Positions 1-6,710 of a stretch of DNA of 7,047 nt are shown one piece after another. Numbering within the stretch: the first letter of the stretch is position 1; every line of letters starts with the position of its first letter. The notes beneath the pieces are model-generated. The model made no database searches and was not told the DNA's origin. It worked only from the letters and a program-made list of their open reading frames with translations. The position numbers and the translations under genes were made by a program. The stretch is taken from assembly GCF_053078305.1 (NCBI RefSeq), contig NZ_CP166877.1. The stretch is one strand, 5' to 3'. Source of the DNA: a plasmid.

Positions 1-1599
1 ATGATAGTTAAGTTTCATGCCAGGGGAAAAGGCGGTGGCAGTGGTCCGGTTGATTACCTGCTGGGCCGGGAGCGTAACCGGGAAGGGGCGAGAGTTCTGC
101 GGGGTGCTCCCGAAGAGGTGCGGGAACTCATCGATGCCACGCCGTTTGCGAAAAAATACACCTCGGGGGTTCTGTCTTTTGCAGAGCAGACCCTGCCACC
201 GGGAGAGCGTGAAAGGGTGATGGAGAGCTTTGAGCGGGTACTGATGCCCGGTCTTGAAAAAAATCAGTACAGCATCCTGTGGGTGGAGCACCAGGACAAG
301 GGGCGTCTTGAGCTGAATTTTGTCATCCCGAATATGGAGCTGGCGAGCGGAAAACGGCTCCAGCCCTATTACGACCGGGCGGACCGTCCGCGAATCAATG
401 CCTGGCAGACACTGGTGAATCACCATTACGGGCTGCACGACCCGAACGCACCGGAGAACAGGCGGACACTTGTCACCCCGAATAATCTGCCGAAAGCGAA
501 ACAGGAGGCCGCAGAAGCGATTACGAGGGGACTGGAGGCTCTTTACCATGCCGGAGCGCTAAAAACGCGTCAGGATGTCACTGAGGCGCTTACAGCGGCA
601 GGTTTTGAGGTGGTGAGGACAACCAGGAGCAGTATCAGTATCGCCGACCCGGAGGGCGGGCGTAATCTCAGGCTGAAAGGGGCGCTGTATGAGCAATCTT
701 TTACAAATGGGGACAGACTTCGAGAAGAAACTGAAAGAGCGTGCCGTCTCTACAGAGAACATGCTGAACAGCGAGTTCAGGAAGCTCGAAGCGTCTGTAG
801 ACAGGGAACTGAACTTAAACGGGCAGAAAATCAGAGACGCTATCAGCGCACACACAGCAGCGGTGAAAGAACAACTGGAGACGCTGAACAGTGCCGTGAA
901 CGCGCAGTTCAGCGCCACAGAGAACGAACTGGCCCGGCGGCAGGAAGAGCTGCTCTGGAAGCTGATCAAAGGGCGGATACTGTACCCGTCGCTGACGGCG
1001 CTTTGCGTCACGGGCGGGATTTTTCTGGCGTCATGGGGGCTGATTCAGTGGCAGGAAAGCCGTATTGCGGCGAACATCCTGGCTATCAGGGACCAGGAAG
1101 AGACGCTGGCGAAACTCCGGGAAAAAACATGGGGTGTGACGTATCACGAGGGCAGGAACGGGAAATTTCTGGTGCTGCCGTCCGGGGTGAAGGGGGAAAA
1201 CAACTGGACGGTGGAGAAGAAGAACGCAGTAAGACTGGTCAGGGAGTAAGTGAGTATGACAGAGCTGGAAATGCACTTACTGAACGCCTTAGAGCAATTG
1301 CAGCAGGACTATACGCAGCGGCTGAAAGACTGGGAGAGCGCCTTCACGGATTTGCAGCATATGTTCGAGCTGACACGACAGGAGAACGGGCAACTGAGGG
1401 AACAGTGCGACGACTTGAGTCAGCAGGTGCAGAGATTAGCCGGGCAGGTGGACCGCTTGAGTCGGTTATTTATCACGAACAGCAGATAAGGGATGAACAG
1501 GAAAGGCAGGCACGCCTGGAACGGGAGCGTGCGCGGTCCTGGCATGAAGAGCAGGAACGGGAAGTACGGGTATGGCGTGGCCCGTCAATGGGGATGTGA
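1..1599 (+). CDS. mbeA: Mobilization relaxase MbeA (MobA-like, HEN-type relaxase of ColE1-family plasmids)
   Basis: 532-aa ORF starting at base 1. The N-terminus MIVKFHARGKGGGSGPVDYLLGRE matches the ColE1 MbeA N-terminus as I recall it, including the catalytic Tyr in VDYLLG. A His/Glu/Asn motif (WVEHQDKGRLELNFV) fits the HEN relaxase signature. The C-terminal third is low-complexity Arg/Glu-rich and hosts the nested mbeB/mbeD frames. Confidence 0.9.
   Translation: MIVKFHARGKGGGSGPVDYLLGRERNREGARVLRGAPEEVRELIDATPFAKKYTSGVLSFAEQTLPPGERERVMESFERVLMPGLEKNQYSILWVEHQDKGRLELNFVIPNMELASGKRLQPYYDRADRPRINAWQTLVNHHYGLHDPNAPENRRTLVTPNNLPKAKQEAAEAITRGLEALYHAGALKTRQDVTEALTAAGFEVVRTTRSSISIADPEGGRNLRLKGALYEQSFTNGDRLREETERACRLYREHAEQRVQEARSVCRQGTELKRAENQRRYQRTHSSGERTTGDAEQCRERAVQRHRERTGPAAGRAALEADQRADTVPVADGALRHGRDFSGVMGADSVAGKPYCGEHPGYQGPGRDAGETPGKNMGCDVSRGQEREISGAAVRGEGGKQLDGGEEERSKTGQGVSEYDRAGNALTERLRAIAAGLYAAAERLGERLHGFAAYVRADTTGERATEGTVRRLESAGAEISRAGGPLESVIYHEQQIRDEQERQARLERERARSWHEEQEREVRVWRGPSMGM
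689..1249 (+). CDS. mbeB: Mobilization protein MbeB, nested inside mbeA in the +2 frame
   Basis: 186-aa ORF wholly inside mbeA in another frame, which is the classic ColE1 mob arrangement. ATG start is preceded by AAGGGG about 8 nt upstream. The product has a hydrophobic segment (LTALCVTGGIFLASWGLI) consistent with a membrane-associated accessory protein. Confidence 0.75.
   Translation: MSNLLQMGTDFEKKLKERAVSTENMLNSEFRKLEASVDRELNLNGQKIRDAISAHTAAVKEQLETLNSAVNAQFSATENELARRQEELLWKLIKGRILYPSLTALCVTGGIFLASWGLIQWQESRIAANILAIRDQEETLAKLREKTWGVTYHEGRNGKFLVLPSGVKGENNWTVEKKNAVRLVRE
1256..1489 (+). CDS. mbeD: Mobilization protein MbeD (reported entry-exclusion role in ColE1), nested in the mbeA 3' region
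   Basis: Same +2 frame as mbeB, directly after the mbeB stop (TAA 1247-1249). The ORF track starts it at GTG 1250, but ATG 1256 has the better Shine-Dalgarno spacing (GGGAG 1242-1246, 9-nt spacer), so the start is placed at 1256 (alternative 1250). Product is a 77-79 aa coiled-coil-like protein (MTELEMHLLNALEQLQQDYTQRL...). Confidence 0.7.
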   Translation: MTELEMHLLNALEQLQQDYTQRLKDWESAFTDLQHMFELTRQENGQLREQCDDLSQQVQRLAGQVDRLSRLFITNSR

Positions 1600-1759: not shown

Positions 1760-1939
1760 TGAAAAGATGGAAAAAAAACAGTGTCATGAGGTTTACGCAG
1801 GCAAAACCAGCGTTATTCACATGGCTGAATAGCTATGCATACGGTTAAAATTTATCAGGTGCGATCGCGGCAGCTTTTCGGGTGGTTTGTTGCCATTTTT
1901 ACCTGTCTGCTGCCGTGATCGCGATGAACGCGTTTCAGC
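1760..1939 (+). promoter_or_regulatory. cer accessory sequences (PepA/ArgR-binding region), with a candidate ARG box near 1825-1841
   Basis: Lies immediately upstream of the XerC-side of the cer core, as in ColE1 cer. TGAATAGCTATGCAT at about 1826-1840 resembles the ARG-box consensus (TGAAT-4-ATTCA) and sits about 115 bp upstream of the crossover region. Extent of the accessory region is approximate. Confidence 0.5.
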
Positions 1940-1969
1940 GGTGCGTACAATTAAGGGATTATGGTAAAT
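1940..1969 (+). other. cer-type XerC/XerD recombination core (multimer resolution site)
   Basis: GGTGCGTACAA-TTAAGGGA-TTATGGTAAAT at 1940-1969 matches the ColE1 cer core as I remember it: 11-bp XerC arm, 8-bp central region, 11-bp XerD arm. Confidence 0.85.
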
Positions 1970-1972
1970 CCC

Positions 1973-2395
1973 TTACTGTCTGCCCTCGTATCCATCGAGA
2001 TAAACCGCAGAAATGGTGTCTGCCATTAGTTTCATTTTTTTCGGCGAAGGCATATCGCTGTTTGTGTATTTTCTGCCAGCAAAGGTTGTTGTGCTCCGGA
2101 GTGAGTGAAAAAATTTTTCTGAGTGGAATTCTTTTACACGTTGCTGTGCCGTTTCTGCTGATACTCCGGCTGCTTTGTCTTTCACCCCCATATCCCGGAA
2201 CTGCTGAAAGAACGGGAGCATCATACGTATGGTGTCTGCTTTCTGGGTGTAGAAGTTAGGATCAAATCCATCATCTGAAGCATAAACATAATGCCGGGTA
2301 TGTCGTTCCAGGCTGGTCTTTGGTGTGCATCCTGTAAGAGCTATTGTTGCTGTTATCAGAGGTATCAGAAGCAGCCTGGCAGCGGCAGATCTCAT
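1973..2395 (-). CDS. Putative outer-membrane lipoprotein of unknown function (possibly the Exc1-like ORF of ColE1-type plasmids)
   Basis: ORF 1973..2401 (-). The N-terminus has a signal peptide and lipobox (LLLIPLITATIALTG-C). Residue +2 after the Cys is Thr, not Asp, suggesting outer-membrane sorting. Start is placed at the second ATG (2395) because AAGGAG lies 6 nt upstream of it; the first ATG at 2401 abuts the SD. No catalytic motif recognised. Confidence 0.6.
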   Translation of the reverse strand: MRSAAARLLLIPLITATIALTGCTPKTSLERHTRHYVYASDDGFDPNFYTQKADTIRMMLPFFQQFRDMGVKDKAAGVSAETAQQRVKEFHSEKFFHSLRSTTTFAGRKYTNSDMPSPKKMKLMADTISAVYLDGYEGRQ

Positions 2396-2516
2396 AAACA
2401 TCTCCTTGCGTTTTTAATCTTGATACTCAGGGAGTTATATCTCCGAAGAGTATCTCTTATCATACGTCGGTTTACTCCCAATGTGATTTTATGGTCAATG
2501 AGTCAGGAATAATCCC

Positions 2517-2795
2517 GTGAAAAAATGTGTGCCAGTCCTGCTTTTTAGTGTTCTTTCTGCTTCGGTTGCCAGTCATGCGGACAGCAATGTTTTTCAACAA
2601 AAGGCCGAGAAGACAAAAAACGGCATTGTTGCGGATGTTAATGCCAGACAGAAAATGTTCAGTAACAGACTGAAGATACAACTTCAGATCGATGAGTTGA
2701 GAGCAGAGCTGGCTGGCACCAGAGATGCCCAAAAAAGAGAGGATTTGCGTAAAAAACTGGAGTCTCTGGAGCGGCAAAAGAAATCCTTACGCTGA
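2517..2795 (+). CDS. Small exported coiled-coil protein (Sec signal peptide), function unknown
   Basis: 92-aa ORF with GTG start at 2517 and AGGA 8 nt upstream. N-terminus MKKCVPVLLFSVLSASVASHA|DS is a typical signal peptide with an A-x-A-like cleavage site. The mature ~71-aa part is highly charged and heptad-like (LKIQLQIDELRAELAGTRDAQKREDLRKKLESLERQKK). The antisense ORF 2472..2777 looks non-protein-like, which favours this strand. Confidence 0.5.
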   Translation: MKKCVPVLLFSVLSASVASHADSNVFQQKAEKTKNGIVADVNARQKMFSNRLKIQLQIDELRAELAGTRDAQKREDLRKKLESLERQKKSLR

Positions 2796-3104
2796 TGGGG
2801 GCGTATTTTCCCCGGTTTCTTCCATAACCTTTTTACCGTTCAGATATTTACGGGCGAGGCGAATGCGTCTTGCCTGGTATACCGCTGAGTAAGCCTGGGT
2901 GGGATTCACACCATTACTGATTTCACTGACCACATGACGCTGATCAGCCAGTGTCAGCGTGTAAACCTGTTTCTGGATGAGGTCACGGGCTTTGTCATAC
3001 TCATATCCGGCAGCAACAAGGGTGTCGAGAAGTCGTTTGTCTGTTTTGTTCAGTTTATGGCGGGGTGATTTGCTCACATCGTTCTCCGTTTTTTCATGAT
3101 CCAA
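2787..3104 (-). CDS. Small basic protein, possibly DNA-binding (HTH-like), function unknown
   Basis: ORF-track ORF of 105 aa that begins at a TTG (RC of 3102-3104). A more plausible start is the in-frame GTG at 3077 (codon 10), with GGAG 6 nt upstream, giving a 96-aa product. The sequence is Lys/Arg-rich with a helix-turn-helix-like stretch (VVSEISNGVNPTQAYSAVYQARRIRLARKYL). Its 3' end overlaps the convergent 92-aa gene by 9 nt. Confidence 0.45.
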   Translation of the reverse strand: MDHEKTENDVSKSPRHKLNKTDKRLLDTLVAAGYEYDKARDLIQKQVYTLTLADQRHVVSEISNGVNPTQAYSAVYQARRIRLARKYLNGKKVMEETGENTPPSA

Positions 3105-3209
3105 CAGTTTTATATCTCATCCTGATTTGCTCCGGTGTTCTGTTTCGACGTTCTCAATGCCTGCCTCCCCATAGTGTGATCCTTATTGCAAAAATGAAAA
3201 TCCATGCTC

Positions 3210-3238
3210 TTGACACGGACAATGCTGAGTAGTAGGTT
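3210..3238 (+). promoter_or_regulatory. Colicin operon sigma70 promoter (-35 TTGACA 3210-3215; putative -10 TAGGTT 3233-3238)
   Basis: Consensus -35 TTGACA, a 17-bp spacer and an imperfect -10, immediately upstream of the tandem LexA boxes and about 80 bp upstream of the colicin ATG. This is the usual colicin promoter architecture. Confidence 0.7.
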
Positions 3239-3242
3239 TTCA

Positions 3243-3273
3243 CTGTACATAAAACCAGTGGTTATATGTACAG
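3243..3273 (+). promoter_or_regulatory. Tandem LexA (SOS) operators overlapping by 1 bp
   Basis: CTGTACATAAAACCAG (3243-3258) and GTGGTTATATGTACAG (3258-3273), each close to CTGT-N8-ACAG. The double overlapping SOS box is the hallmark of colicin promoters, and the arrangement is near-identical to the colicin E1 operator as I recall it. Confidence 0.85.
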
Positions 3274-3317
3274 TATGCTGTTTTTAATTTATTGTTTTAA
3301 TTATCAAAGAGGAATTT

Positions 3318-4964
3318 ATGGCTAAAGAACTAAGTGGATATGGCCCAACTGCTGGTGAGTCTATGGGGGGAACAGGGGCGAATCTGAATCAGCAAGGTGG
3401 AAATAATAATAGTAATAGTGGGGTTCACTGGGGTGGTGGCTCTGGGCATGGTAATAATGGTGGTCAGGGAAATTCAAATTCATCTGGTTCTACATCAACT
3501 GTGATGAAAACCGGTGAGTCATATCTGACTCCGTGGGGTGATGTTGTCATTAATAATGATGGCCTTCCGGTGATGAATGGTATTGTTATGACAGAAGAGA
3601 ATTCAACTCTGGTTGATAATCCATTTGGAGGGGTCTCCAGAGTTCTTAATTCTTTAATTAGTGATATGCCATCACTTTTTGCAGAAAGCTCAGGAAATAA
3701 CAACAATAACACTGCTTCAGTTAATACTGCACCAACGAATGCTCAGGTCAGTGATATGGATAAGAGTTCGAAGGTGGTGGGTAATGTAATTAATGAAAAA
3801 CAAAAGCAGAAGAATAAAATTGCTACACAGATTAGTGAAAAACAGAAGAAAATAGAGGAGATGAAAAAAGTATTCAAGCATCATTCTTATCATGGTATCA
3901 CTGATCTTGAGAGGGATGTTGATGAGTTGCAAAAAAAATCAAATCAGCTTGATGCAGATATTAGCAAACTTAATTCTTATAAAAATACATTGCAAAGTAA
4001 AATTGGTGATGTGAATAAACAGAAGGAAGCTGAAGAAAAGGCTCGTGAAAATGCAGAGGTCGCTGAACATGAAACTCTTAATGAAGAGAAACAGGCGGTG
4101 GTGGAAGCAGAGAAGCGTTTAGATGAGGCGAAAGCTGAACTGGCGAAGGCTGAAAGTGATGTACAGAGTAAGCAAGCTACTGTTTCCAGAGTTGCAGGAG
4201 AGCTTGAAAACGCTCAGAAGAGTGTTGACGTGAAGGTCACCGGATTTCCGGGATGGCGTGACGTTCAGAAAAAACTACAGCGTCAGCTTGAAGCTAAGCA
4301 GGCTGAGTACTCCGCAGTTGAAAATGAACTTAAGAATGCTGTTAGTTTCAGGGATGGCAAGGCTGCTGAGGTAAAAGAGGCAGAGCAGAAATTAAAAGAA
4401 GCTCAGGATGCTCTTGAAAAGAGCCAGATAAAAGATGCTGTTGATACTATGGTTGGGTTTTATCAATATATAACCGAACAATATGGAGAAAAATACGCAA
4501 AAATTGCTCAGGATTTAGCGGAAAAGTCTAAAGGAAAGAAAATTCAAGGTGTTGATGAAGCTCTGGCAGCATTTGAAAAGTATAAAAATGTACTGGATAA
4601 GAAATTCAGTAAAGTTGATCGGGATGCTATTTTTAATGCGTTAGAGTCTGTTACTTATGATGAGTGGGCAAAGCATCTAGAAAAGATCTCTAAGGCTCTT
4701 AAGGTTACCGGATATTTGTCTTTCGGGAATGATGTATGGGATGGTACCCGGAAGGGATTAGAAACAGGAGACTGGAGGCCTTTATTTGTCACTCTGGAGA
4801 AGAGTGCGGTAGATTTCGGAGTGGCAAAAATTGTGGCATTAATGTTCAGTTTTATTGCTGGTGCTCCTCTTGGTTTCTGGGGGATTGCTATTATCACTGG
4901 TATTGTTTCTTCTTACATAGGGGATGATGAGCTGAACAAACTTAATGAGTTGTTAGGGATTTAA
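3318..4964 (+). CDS. cka: Pore-forming colicin of the E1/K/5/10 family; length and organisation best fit colicin K
   Basis: 548-aa ORF with AAGAGG SD 5 nt upstream. It has the three expected parts: a Gly/Asn/Ser-rich low-complexity N-terminal translocation domain, a long Lys/Glu-rich coiled-coil central region, and a C-terminal channel domain closely resembling the colicin E1 pore domain as I recall it ([59 protein letters not shown], then the hydrophobic hairpin [33 protein letters not shown]). Colicin K is 548 aa; the specific K assignment is from memory. Confidence 0.92.
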
Positions 4965-5251
4965 TATCTCTTTAGAGTGTAATATATGAAACTTGGCAAT
5001 CCTACTGGGATTGCCATTGCCAGGTAAAGTAAATAAAAAAGGTTGTATGAGTACCAAGGCTCTTTTTTTATGTTTGTCGTCTTTTGTATAAAAGAAAATA
5101 TCGTTAGTTTTGAATATGGGTATAGTAATACATGTATTGATGCAAAAAATATAAAAGCTAGAGATATATCATTGTTATAGTTAAGTGTTAAATATAATAA
5201 CCATGGCAGAAGTGATTCAGGTAAATTATGTAGGTAGTATTTTAGATACAT
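4961..5251 (-). CDS. cki: Colicin immunity protein (pore-former type, integral membrane)
   Basis: 96-aa ORF convergent with the colicin gene. It is very hydrophobic and AT-rich with about three predicted transmembrane segments ([12 protein letters not shown]..., [16 protein letters not shown]..., [23 protein letters not shown]). Position and opposite orientation between colicin and lysis genes are typical of pore-forming colicin immunity genes. Its stop overlaps the colicin stop in TTAA (4961-4964). Confidence 0.85.
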
Positions 5252-5275: not shown

Positions 5276-5407
5276 ATGAAAATAGTGCTTTTTCTAATTA
5301 CAATATTATCCTTGTCAGGATGTCAAGCAAACTATATTCGTGATGTACAAGGAGGAACCGTTGCGCCATCTTCGTCTTCTGAACTGACGGGGATCGCGGT
5401 TCAGTAG
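5276..5407 (+). CDS. ckl: Colicin lysis (release) lipoprotein
   Basis: Not in the ORF track because it is short. Manual translation gives [43 protein letters not shown] (43 aa): signal peptide, lipobox LSG-C, and the conserved mature motif [11 protein letters not shown] typical of colicin lysis proteins. GGAGG lies just upstream. Confidence 0.85.
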
Positions 5408-5454: not shown

Positions 5455-5467
5455 GCTGCCTGTAAAC

Positions 5468-5573
5468 GAAAAAACCCGCCTTGTGGCGGGTTCTTCCGTC
5501 CGATCAGAAGTCTTCGACCTCTTCTAATCGGCGGTGGTAACTGGCTATCGCAGAGCACAGGTACCTAAATTGT
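5468..5573 (-). ncRNA. RNAI antisense copy-number control RNA
   Basis: The reverse complement reads ACAAUUUAGGUACCUGUGCUCUGCGAUAGCCAGUUACC..CCGAUUAGAAGAGGUCGAAGACUUCUGAUCGG..AACCCGCCACAAGGCGGGUUUUUU. This gives three stem-loops and a terminal hairpin plus U-run, homologous in layout to pMB1 RNAI but with different stem and loop sequences. Confidence 0.8.
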
Positions 5574-6475: not shown

Positions 6476-6667
6476 TCAGAGGTTTTCACCGTCATCCCCG
6501 AAGCGTGCGAGGCAGCTGCGGTAAAGCTCGTCGGCGTGGTCGTGAAGCGCTTCGCAGATGTCAGCCTGGTCGTCGGCGTCCAGTTCATTCAGTTTTTCCA
6601 GCAGGGTCAGCGTCTGGCTTCTGATGAAGCGGGCCATGTTAAGGGCGGTTTTTTCCTGTTTAGTCAC
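6476..6667 (-). CDS. rop: Rop/Rom (RNA one modulator; RNAI-RNAII kissing-complex stabiliser)
   Basis: 63 codons ending ...TKQEKTALNMARFIRSQTLTLLEKLNELDADDQADICEALHDHADELYRSCLARFGDDGENL, near-identical to ColE1/pBR322 Rop. The start appears to be GTG (RC of 6665-6667) at the position of the ATG in pBR322. The ORF-track entry 6476..6907 is an artefactual N-terminal extension. Confidence 0.9.
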   Translation of the reverse strand: MTKQEKTALNMARFIRSQTLTLLEKLNELDADDQADICEALHDHADELYRSCLARFGDDGENL

Positions 6668-6710
6668 AGTTCTGTTTCTCCATGTGTGGGGAGTCTGTCG
6701 GAGGTTTTTA

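Follow-up and report, generated by a model that had tools for sequence, protein, structure and literature searches.

Does a short tail-to-tail overlap between two small plasmid genes couple their expression, or is it left over from the way in which the plasmid was assembled? This question is raised by positions 2517-3077 of a 7,047-bp stretch of plasmid DNA (contig NZ_CP166877.1; hereafter the window), which is a ColE1-like colicin K plasmid and is, in this region, 99.6% identical to the Escherichia coli plasmid NZ_CP046541.1. The plus-strand gene, here called A (2517-2795), starts with GTG, ends with TGA and encodes 92 amino acids, and the minus-strand gene, X (2787-3077), starts with GTG, ends with TAA and encodes 96 amino acids; both are annotated as coding sequences by the Prokaryotic Genome Annotation Pipeline (PGAP; WP_000710675.1 and WP_032330705.1, respectively). 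The overlap is probably (at a probability of roughly 0.6) a by-product of a mosaic junction between two independent, genuine genes and not a means of coupling their expression.

The stop codon of A is the TGA at 2793-2795 and that of X is a TAA, the reverse complement of 2787-2789, so that the nine nucleotides (nt) at 2787-2795 (plus strand, TTACGCTGA) are shared between the strands. They are read as TTA CGC TGA (Leu-Arg-stop of A) on the plus strand and as TCA GCG TAA (Ser-Ala-stop of X) on the minus strand. The convergent pair, the 9-nt overlap and all of the coordinates given in an earlier note on this DNA were borne out by the sequence and its open reading frames (ORFs). Annotations of the colicin S4 plasmid and of other colicin plasmids (L024 and L025) show the identical overlap, and it is also called in a plasmid that is about 88% identical and carries a colicin A-like gene (L008). 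Of 5,426 complete E. coli genomes, 83 carry A and X together, without exception on plasmids, and the two products are hypothetical proteins throughout RefSeq. Neither a convergent overlap of 9 nt nor the use of GTG as the start of both genes is statistically unusual in itself.

Both A and X are genuine genes, because their ratios of nonsynonymous to synonymous substitution rates (dN/dS) are 0.16-0.40 against diverged homologues (for which dS reaches about 1 or above), both are preceded by Shine-Dalgarno sequences, their folds are predicted with confidence and both are annotated in RefSeq. The ratio for A is 0.29 against L008 and 0.22 against L007, a plasmid with a more distant homologue, and that for X, the homologues of which extend down to about 40% identity, is 0.16-0.40. 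The Shine-Dalgarno sequence of A (AGGA, 2504-2507, plus strand) lies 9 nt ahead of its GTG, and CAGGAAT is conserved ahead of A in the window, L008, pECOED, pVirR1 and L007; that of X (GGAG, 3084-3087, minus strand) lies 6 nt ahead of the GTG at 3077. Both proteins are short and annotated only as hypothetical, and ORFs of similar length that arise by chance are numerous in the window, as would be expected if one of the two were a spurious antisense frame or if the pair were a toxin-antitoxin or immunity-like module. It is very improbable that either is the case, since each gene is under purifying selection in its own frame, homologues of each are found at loci that lack the partner, no PADLOC family was matched by either protein, and a convergent orientation combined with independent distribution is atypical of toxin-antitoxin pairs.

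Plasmids that carry only one of the two genes indicate where the overlap comes from. The reference point is the sequence at 1940-1969 (plus strand), which consists of a XerC arm (GGTGCGTACAA), a central region (TTAAGGGA) and a XerD arm (TTATGGTAAAT), each an exact match, in the layout of an 11-bp XerC arm, an 8-bp central region and an 11-bp XerD arm described for Xer cores (PMC5357621). Such an exact core is expected 0 times by chance and is identical in a colicin E1 plasmid (L021), and the upstream segment (1632-1970) has homologues in the cer regions of other plasmids. By these sequence features, 1940-1969 is a ColE1 cer-type Xer site, a type defined by a 30-bp core beside about 180 bp of accessory sequence. 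Its core lies 3 nt from the stop codon of exc2 (1973-2401, minus strand), which is annotated by PGAP as encoding an Exc2 family lipoprotein (NF033828, E 4e-53), is divergent from A and lies on the same strand as X.

X is a backbone gene of ColE1-like plasmids. Where it occurs without A, it is located between the bacteriocin promoter and the cer site, and homology to the window ends at 2830/2831, which corresponds to residue 82/83 of X. There, X ends in Asp-Leu-Pro-stop, and the codons of this ending, read on the other strand, spell the XerD arm TTATGGTAAATC of a cer-type core; the stop codon is within an exact Xer core in L003 and L016-L020 and within a degenerate core in pPCP1 of Yersinia pestis. 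With its last three codons and stop lying antisense to the XerD arm, the native X gene shares 11 nt with the Xer core (for example at 2778-2806 of L003, 4611-4639 of L016 and 2787-2814 of pPCP1, L002). The Shigella sonnei plasmid L003 matches the window at 1632-1970 and again at 2830-3276 with only about 30 bp between the two matches, a pattern which indicates that window positions 1971-2829 (~860 bp, containing exc2 and A) are extra DNA between the cer core and the body of X. The colicin K, colicin S4 and L008 lineage has this ~860-bp segment between the cer core and the X body, and the native tail of X is gone. On the side of A, the homology of pVirR1, which carries A but not X, ends at 2819 and that of L007 at the stop codon of A. 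Together with the end point at 2830/2831, these end points of homology place the joint between the A module and the X body at about 2820-2830.

At this joint, the X frame would have continued antisense through the 3' flank of A for 13 codons to the first stop codon, which is 9 nt inside A. The resulting C-terminal tail, V84-A96 (2790-2828, minus strand), is specific to this lineage, is antisense to the 3' flank and the last codons of A, and is unlike the tails of other lineages, which end in ...DLP. Of its 13 residues, 3 differ between the window and L008, as compared with 1 of 83 in the body, and the last four residues of A are KSLR in the window and NALH in L008, so that the overlap falls within the least conserved part of both proteins. 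As the tail is variable and predicted to be disordered, it is probably functionally neutral. All plasmids that carry both genes share one inherited A-X junction. No recognisable Xer-like site is present at the joint itself (2820-2830). A reversed XerD-like match at 2818-2828 (8 of 11 positions) was considered and set aside, since it is within chance expectation by our estimate.

The earlier note had proposed that convergent transcription, for want of obvious terminators, must collide or read into the partner gene and could in this way couple expression of A and X; on this view, the overlap would belong to an antisense or collision switch that makes the two mutually dependent. Its statement that neither gene has an obvious intrinsic terminator is essentially right. 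A pattern scan gave only marginal hairpins of 5-6 base pairs with interrupted T-runs at the junction: on the plus strand, one at 2796-2814 following the stop codon of A (GGGGG...CCCC, then GGTTTCTTCC) with four G-C and two G-U pairs and a U-poor tail, and on the minus strand one at 2805-2788 with five pairs. The folding energy of the junction was no better than that of shuffled sequence on either strand (z of -0.27 and -0.30), and the hairpin at 2796-2814 is a weak terminator at best. Neither for A nor for X did a promoter pass a consensus scan, and inspection by eye turned up no convincing candidate. As no strong terminator was recognised between the two genes, their transcripts probably overlap; judged from the sequence, the A and X transcripts may share this region, and transcription of X may proceed across A, antisense to it, and into exc2, a gene of the same strand as X. 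Such overlapping transcripts would be noise that the plasmid tolerates, as opposed to a switch under selection. The arrangement is kept in every plasmid with both genes, including L008 at ~88% identity, which speaks for coupling, as does the lack of a convincing terminator on either strand. However, A and X are found separately in other replicons, the overlap traces to a single inherited junction and falls in the fastest-changing, disordered part of X, and each gene has been lost or disrupted in plasmids in which the partner and plasmid function persist. Coupling by the overlap is therefore improbable, and this part of the earlier note is unsupported.

The distribution of the two genes is independent, consistent with the origin at a mosaic junction that is preferred here. 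X without A is found in pPCP1, where it is divergent from the pesticin gene, in 5.2-kb plasmids of S. sonnei, where it is divergent from a colicin Z-like remnant, and in metagenomic plasmids, where it is divergent from a PAAR-pyocin S operon. A without X is found in L007 and L022, and decayed copies of A are present in large plasmids. Decay of one ORF in related plasmids, which the earlier note had named as counting against its own proposal, was seen in some plasmids only: A has in-frame stop codons in pECOED and pVirR1, and in the reference colicin K plasmid pColK-K235 (L004 868-2199) X is split by IS2 after about codon 28 (window about 2990-2995) and A is frameshifted after about codon 63 by a 1-nt deletion, which is possibly a sequencing error, whereas most copies of both genes are intact and under purifying selection. 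Because X is split and A frameshifted in pColK-K235, neither gene is needed for the production of colicin K, and on this sequence evidence A and X are dispensable for replication and colicin production.

A further XerD-arm-like sequence, TTATGGTCAAT (2489-2499, plus strand; 10 of 11 positions), lies 17 nt before the GTG of A. In L007 the exact TTATGGTAAAT is found ahead of the A homologue (L007 1099-1109), and homology between the window and L007 begins at 2481, where the central region would lie; no convincing XerC arm was found beside the arm at 2489-2499. This sequence is possibly a remnant module boundary, or it could instead be part of the promoter of A. In pPCP1, a segment carrying pla, a helix-turn-helix (HTH) protein gene and RelE/ParE genes lies between two directly repeated Xer cores with seemingly exchanged arms: the core at 2787-2814, adjoining X, reads GGTACTGATAA...TTATGGTAAAT, and that at 4886-4914, adjoining the cer accessory sequences, reads GGTGCGTACAA...TTATGTTAAAT. 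To judge from the two cores, this is the pattern expected if a circle was integrated by Xer recombination. On the other side of the exc2-A segment, rcd is always transcribed in the direction of RNA II (PMC2831885), so that Rcd would run on the plus strand of the window through the cer core toward the 3' end of exc2. Rcd and exc2 would form a second convergent pair on the plasmid.

The product of X is a basic protein (isoelectric point, pI, 9.8), as the earlier note had stated, of 96 amino acids and ~11 kDa when initiated at the GTG at 3077. No ATG lies in frame near the 5' end of the minus-strand ORF, and the alternative start, TTG at 3104, would give 105 amino acids. The preference of the earlier note for GTG 3077 is upheld by the GGAG 6 nt upstream, by PGAP, which in RefSeq places the start at this GTG in the 99.6%-identical plasmid, and by the N-terminus MSK(S/T)..., which matches those of diverged homologues in pPCP1 and S. 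sonnei plasmids (~71% DNA identity); the arrangement GGAGA-N-GTG is kept in L008, pPCP1 and the S. sonnei plasmid. On sequence grounds, GTG 3077 is the supported start, and TTG 3104 is without comparable support. At 3074-3079 (minus strand), ATGTGA forms an ATG-TGA start-stop that overlaps the GTG of X, 4 nt past the GGAG; it is present in L008, and the pPCP1 and S. sonnei plasmids have ACGTGA. This start-stop could compete with initiation at the GTG. Codon 27 of X (2997-2999, minus strand) encodes Tyr in the window (YEYDK), His in L008 and the aligned near-identical copies from colicin plasmids (YEHDK), and Glu is found at this position in more distant homologues.

Family and structure searches with X gave one significant match, to phrog_36305 in PHROGs (E 2.1e-38, 132 bits; residues 11-93 of the 105-residue form against profile positions 4-86 of 101), a family without an assigned function, and nothing significant in Pfam, NCBIfam or PADLOC. 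An exhaustive hidden Markov model search with an X profile gave only 19 relatives among 1.84 billion cluster representatives, all uncharacterised. The AlphaFold2 model consists of four helices (mean predicted local distance difference test score, pLDDT, 81), with residues 83-96 below 50 and predicted to be disordered, and a structure search with it gave no significant neighbour of known function. An internal helix-Gly-helix repeat was rejected because 69% of shuffled sequences score equally well, and a resemblance to the CW_7 (Cpl-7) repeat is weak and not established. X would be a basic, cytoplasmic, four-helix accessory protein, most likely nucleic-acid-binding, that serves plasmid maintenance or regulation; as a best guess, offered with low confidence, it belongs to the plasmid backbone as an accessory protein that binds nucleic acid.

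If X binds DNA, it might regulate the divergent bacteriocin or toxin promoter, in which case its adjacency to A would be irrelevant; this proposal is compatible with an origin of the overlap at a module junction. X (or rop-X) and a toxin operon are transcribed divergently in every context seen, the contexts being colicin K, colicin S4, colicin A-like, pesticin, colicin Z-like remnant, PAAR-pyocin S and PAAR-DUF3289/VgrG-like. X and the whole intergenic region between X and the colicin gene are conserved together with pPCP1, and X is small, basic and helical, with sub-threshold matches of HTH type: to the P27 small terminase (E 0.015), a PHROG repressor (E 0.16) and Phage_rep_O (E 0.3). The first of these, the P27-family phage terminase small subunit (TIGR01558), was matched over 42 residues with 15.2 bits against a cut-off of 45.6 bits, and no significant HTH or other DNA-binding domain was found in Pfam, nor any significant DNA-binding family or fold match. 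Moreover, X is split by IS2 in the reference plasmid pColK-K235, ColE1 itself lacks X, and adjacency to a single cargo region is weak evidence in plasmids of 5-10 kb. A regulatory role of this kind is therefore possible but unlikely.

Equally tentative is the proposal that X acts in plasmid maintenance, through cer/Xer multimer resolution, the Rcd checkpoint or copy control by Rop and RNA I, while A functions in the envelope alongside Exc2, entry exclusion and protection of the envelope being examples of what the two might do. The native end of X inside the XerD arm of cer is in line with a role in maintenance. In the most distant relatives of X (81 and 95 amino acids; L010-L014), moreover, the ATG of X overlaps the stop codon of rop as ATGA (L013 4155-4158), and from this overlap X appears to be translationally coupled to rop in these plasmids. 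In one of them, L011, the ori region lies directly downstream of X. As for A, it is predicted to be exported, is divergent from exc2 and travels with the 5' end of exc2 in fragments in pECOED and pVirR1. Nevertheless, X is broken in a stably maintained plasmid, A is found without exc2 in L007 and L022, and neither A nor X is homologous to a known maintenance or exclusion factor.

A still more speculative proposal, to which we give little credence, joins these two roles: X would be a dedicated factor of ColE1 plasmids, a small nucleic-acid-binding protein that physically connects the cer/XerD site, or copy control by Rop, with expression of the adjacent bacteriocin or toxin operon and so reports the dimer or copy-number state. 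In pPCP1, X is conserved adjoining pst. In a weaker variant, A lies on a cassette mobilised by Xer and the antisense overlap of A and X has been co-opted for regulation.

The product of A begins with features of a signal peptide (MKKCVPVLLFSVLSASVASHA; 2517-2579, plus strand, read from the sequence): a charged n-region (MKK), a hydrophobic h-region (CVPVLLFSVLSASVA) and small residues at -3 and -1 (S-H-A|D), with predicted cleavage before D22. These features identify A, by prediction, as a protein exported by Sec and cleaved by signal peptidase I, in agreement with the earlier note, and signal-peptide-like N-termini are retained in homologues P0060 (63% identical) and P0085 (36%). The mature part would be about 71 residues (~8.3 kDa, pI 10.2). 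Full-length homologues have protein identities of 83% (L008, aligned positions), 63% (L007) and 36% (P0085), and all have a signal peptide and a charged helical region. In the AlphaFold2 model (pLDDT 83), A is a helical hairpin with helices at 16-67 and 71-90, and residues 1-17 score below 50; A would thus be a Sec-exported, basic, periplasmic helical hairpin of about 8 kDa. No family was found for A in Pfam, NCBIfam, PHROG or PADLOC; the match to the FlxA-like protein of Pfam (PF14282; E 0.65, 10.6 bits) is not significant, the fold search with the model gave only generic coiled coils, and the profile search added one distant homologue, P0085, and no function. Assignment of A to the Exc2 family lipoproteins (NF033828) was rejected, as neither A nor X matches the model, only the neighbouring exc2 does, and A has no lipobox. 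The distant homologue in L007 is downstream of a BaeS/AdeS-like sensor kinase gene (L007 3-782), and that in L022 (3883-4194), a ParA/KfrA plasmid, is near a fragment of an OmpR-type regulator gene, ABC transporter genes and outer-membrane efflux genes. That distant homologues of A are plasmid-borne or near two-component system genes is only a hint, read from gene order, of a role in the envelope.

The remainder of the window has the layout of a ColE1-like colicin plasmid. The mobilisation gene mobA, with nested mbeB/mbeD-like ORFs, occupies 1-1599 (plus strand). Beyond X, the intergenic region 3078-3317, which contains the -35 element of the colicin K gene cka (TTGACA, 3210-3215) and a tandem LexA-box region (3243-3273), is conserved with the pesticin plasmid pPCP1 and with the S. 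sonnei plasmid. The colicin promoter block (3177-3319), with the -35 TTGACA, the tandem LexA boxes and a conserved AT-rich segment upstream, is ~77-88% identical in hundreds of colicin and Klebsiella plasmids without A and X. It is followed by cka (3318-4964, plus strand), the immunity gene (4961-5251, minus strand), the lysis gene (5276-5407, plus strand), RNA I (5466-5572, minus strand) and rop (about 6476-6670, minus strand). RNA I was the only match in an Rfam search of the window, which gave none at the A/X locus.

Colicin plasmids of the ColE1 type and pPCP1 count among the small replicons on which most work has been done, yet two conserved genes found among them, A and X, are unstudied. 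In the literature on pPCP1 the X homologue appears only as a hypothetical protein whose promoter region is shared with pst (PMC3010648), and literature searches on the protein accessions, YPPCP1.06 and pColK-K235 gave no functional study. If A and X met at a mosaic junction, their overlap needs no regulatory explanation, and what is of interest is the two conserved small proteins of classic plasmids and the link between the 3' end of X and the XerD arm of cer. X marks a backbone position, bounded by the XerD arm, at which cargo is placed: exc2 and A in the window, and pla in pPCP1. If it is true that X regulates bacteriocin expression or maintenance, a plasmid-encoded layer would be added to well-known circuits.

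The locus is best compared with the exc1-exc2 region of ColE1, which has the same position and the same succession of a cer core, exc2 on the minus strand, small gene(s) and a divergent SOS-regulated colicin promoter. Both exc2 and cer are homologous in the two plasmids (window 1822-2463 is 78% identical to L021), whereas ColE1 has a single gene co-directional with exc2 where the colicin K plasmid has A on the opposite strand together with X. In the colicin E1 plasmid L021 the gene between exc2 and the colicin promoter (2448-2885, minus strand) encodes 145 amino acids, with an HTH-like N-terminal region and a C-terminal coiled coil; in BLASTP, this protein gave no alignment with X at E <= 100 and an insignificant one with A (E 5.9). 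Antisense read-through from X into exc2 would resemble the co-directional exc1-exc2 layout of ColE1.

Small periplasmic helical-hairpin proteins that act in stress are represented by Spy, CpxP and ZraP. By analogy only, A resembles them in being small, basic and a predicted Sec-exported hairpin with two distant homologues near two-component genes, but it has no sequence or profile similarity to them. X covers 83 of the 101 profile positions of phrog_36305; all of its contexts seen here are ColE1-like plasmids, not phages.

Modules bounded by Xer sites have already been described in small plasmids, among them ColE1-like qnrB19 plasmids (Tran et al., 2012; PMC3318318), and Xer sites are the module boundaries of the pdif modules of Acinetobacter (PMC5790767). 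Like these, the exc2-A segment has the XerD arm of cer as its left edge and a XerD-arm-like sequence before A, and the pla segment of pPCP1 is flanked on both sides by hybrid-looking cores in direct repeat. Unlike them, the A-X joint lacks a recognisable Xer site, and the arm at 2489-2499 lacks a XerC arm. That cargo has been placed at a backbone position bounded by the XerD arm lends support to the established idea that modules in small enterobacterial plasmids are delimited by Xer sites. In its form, the overlap of A and X is similar to ordinary convergent overlaps in compact genomes, being short, confined to the last codons and having each stop codon within the terminal codons of the partner gene; it differs from them in that its origin can be traced to replacement of a C-terminus at a mosaic junction.
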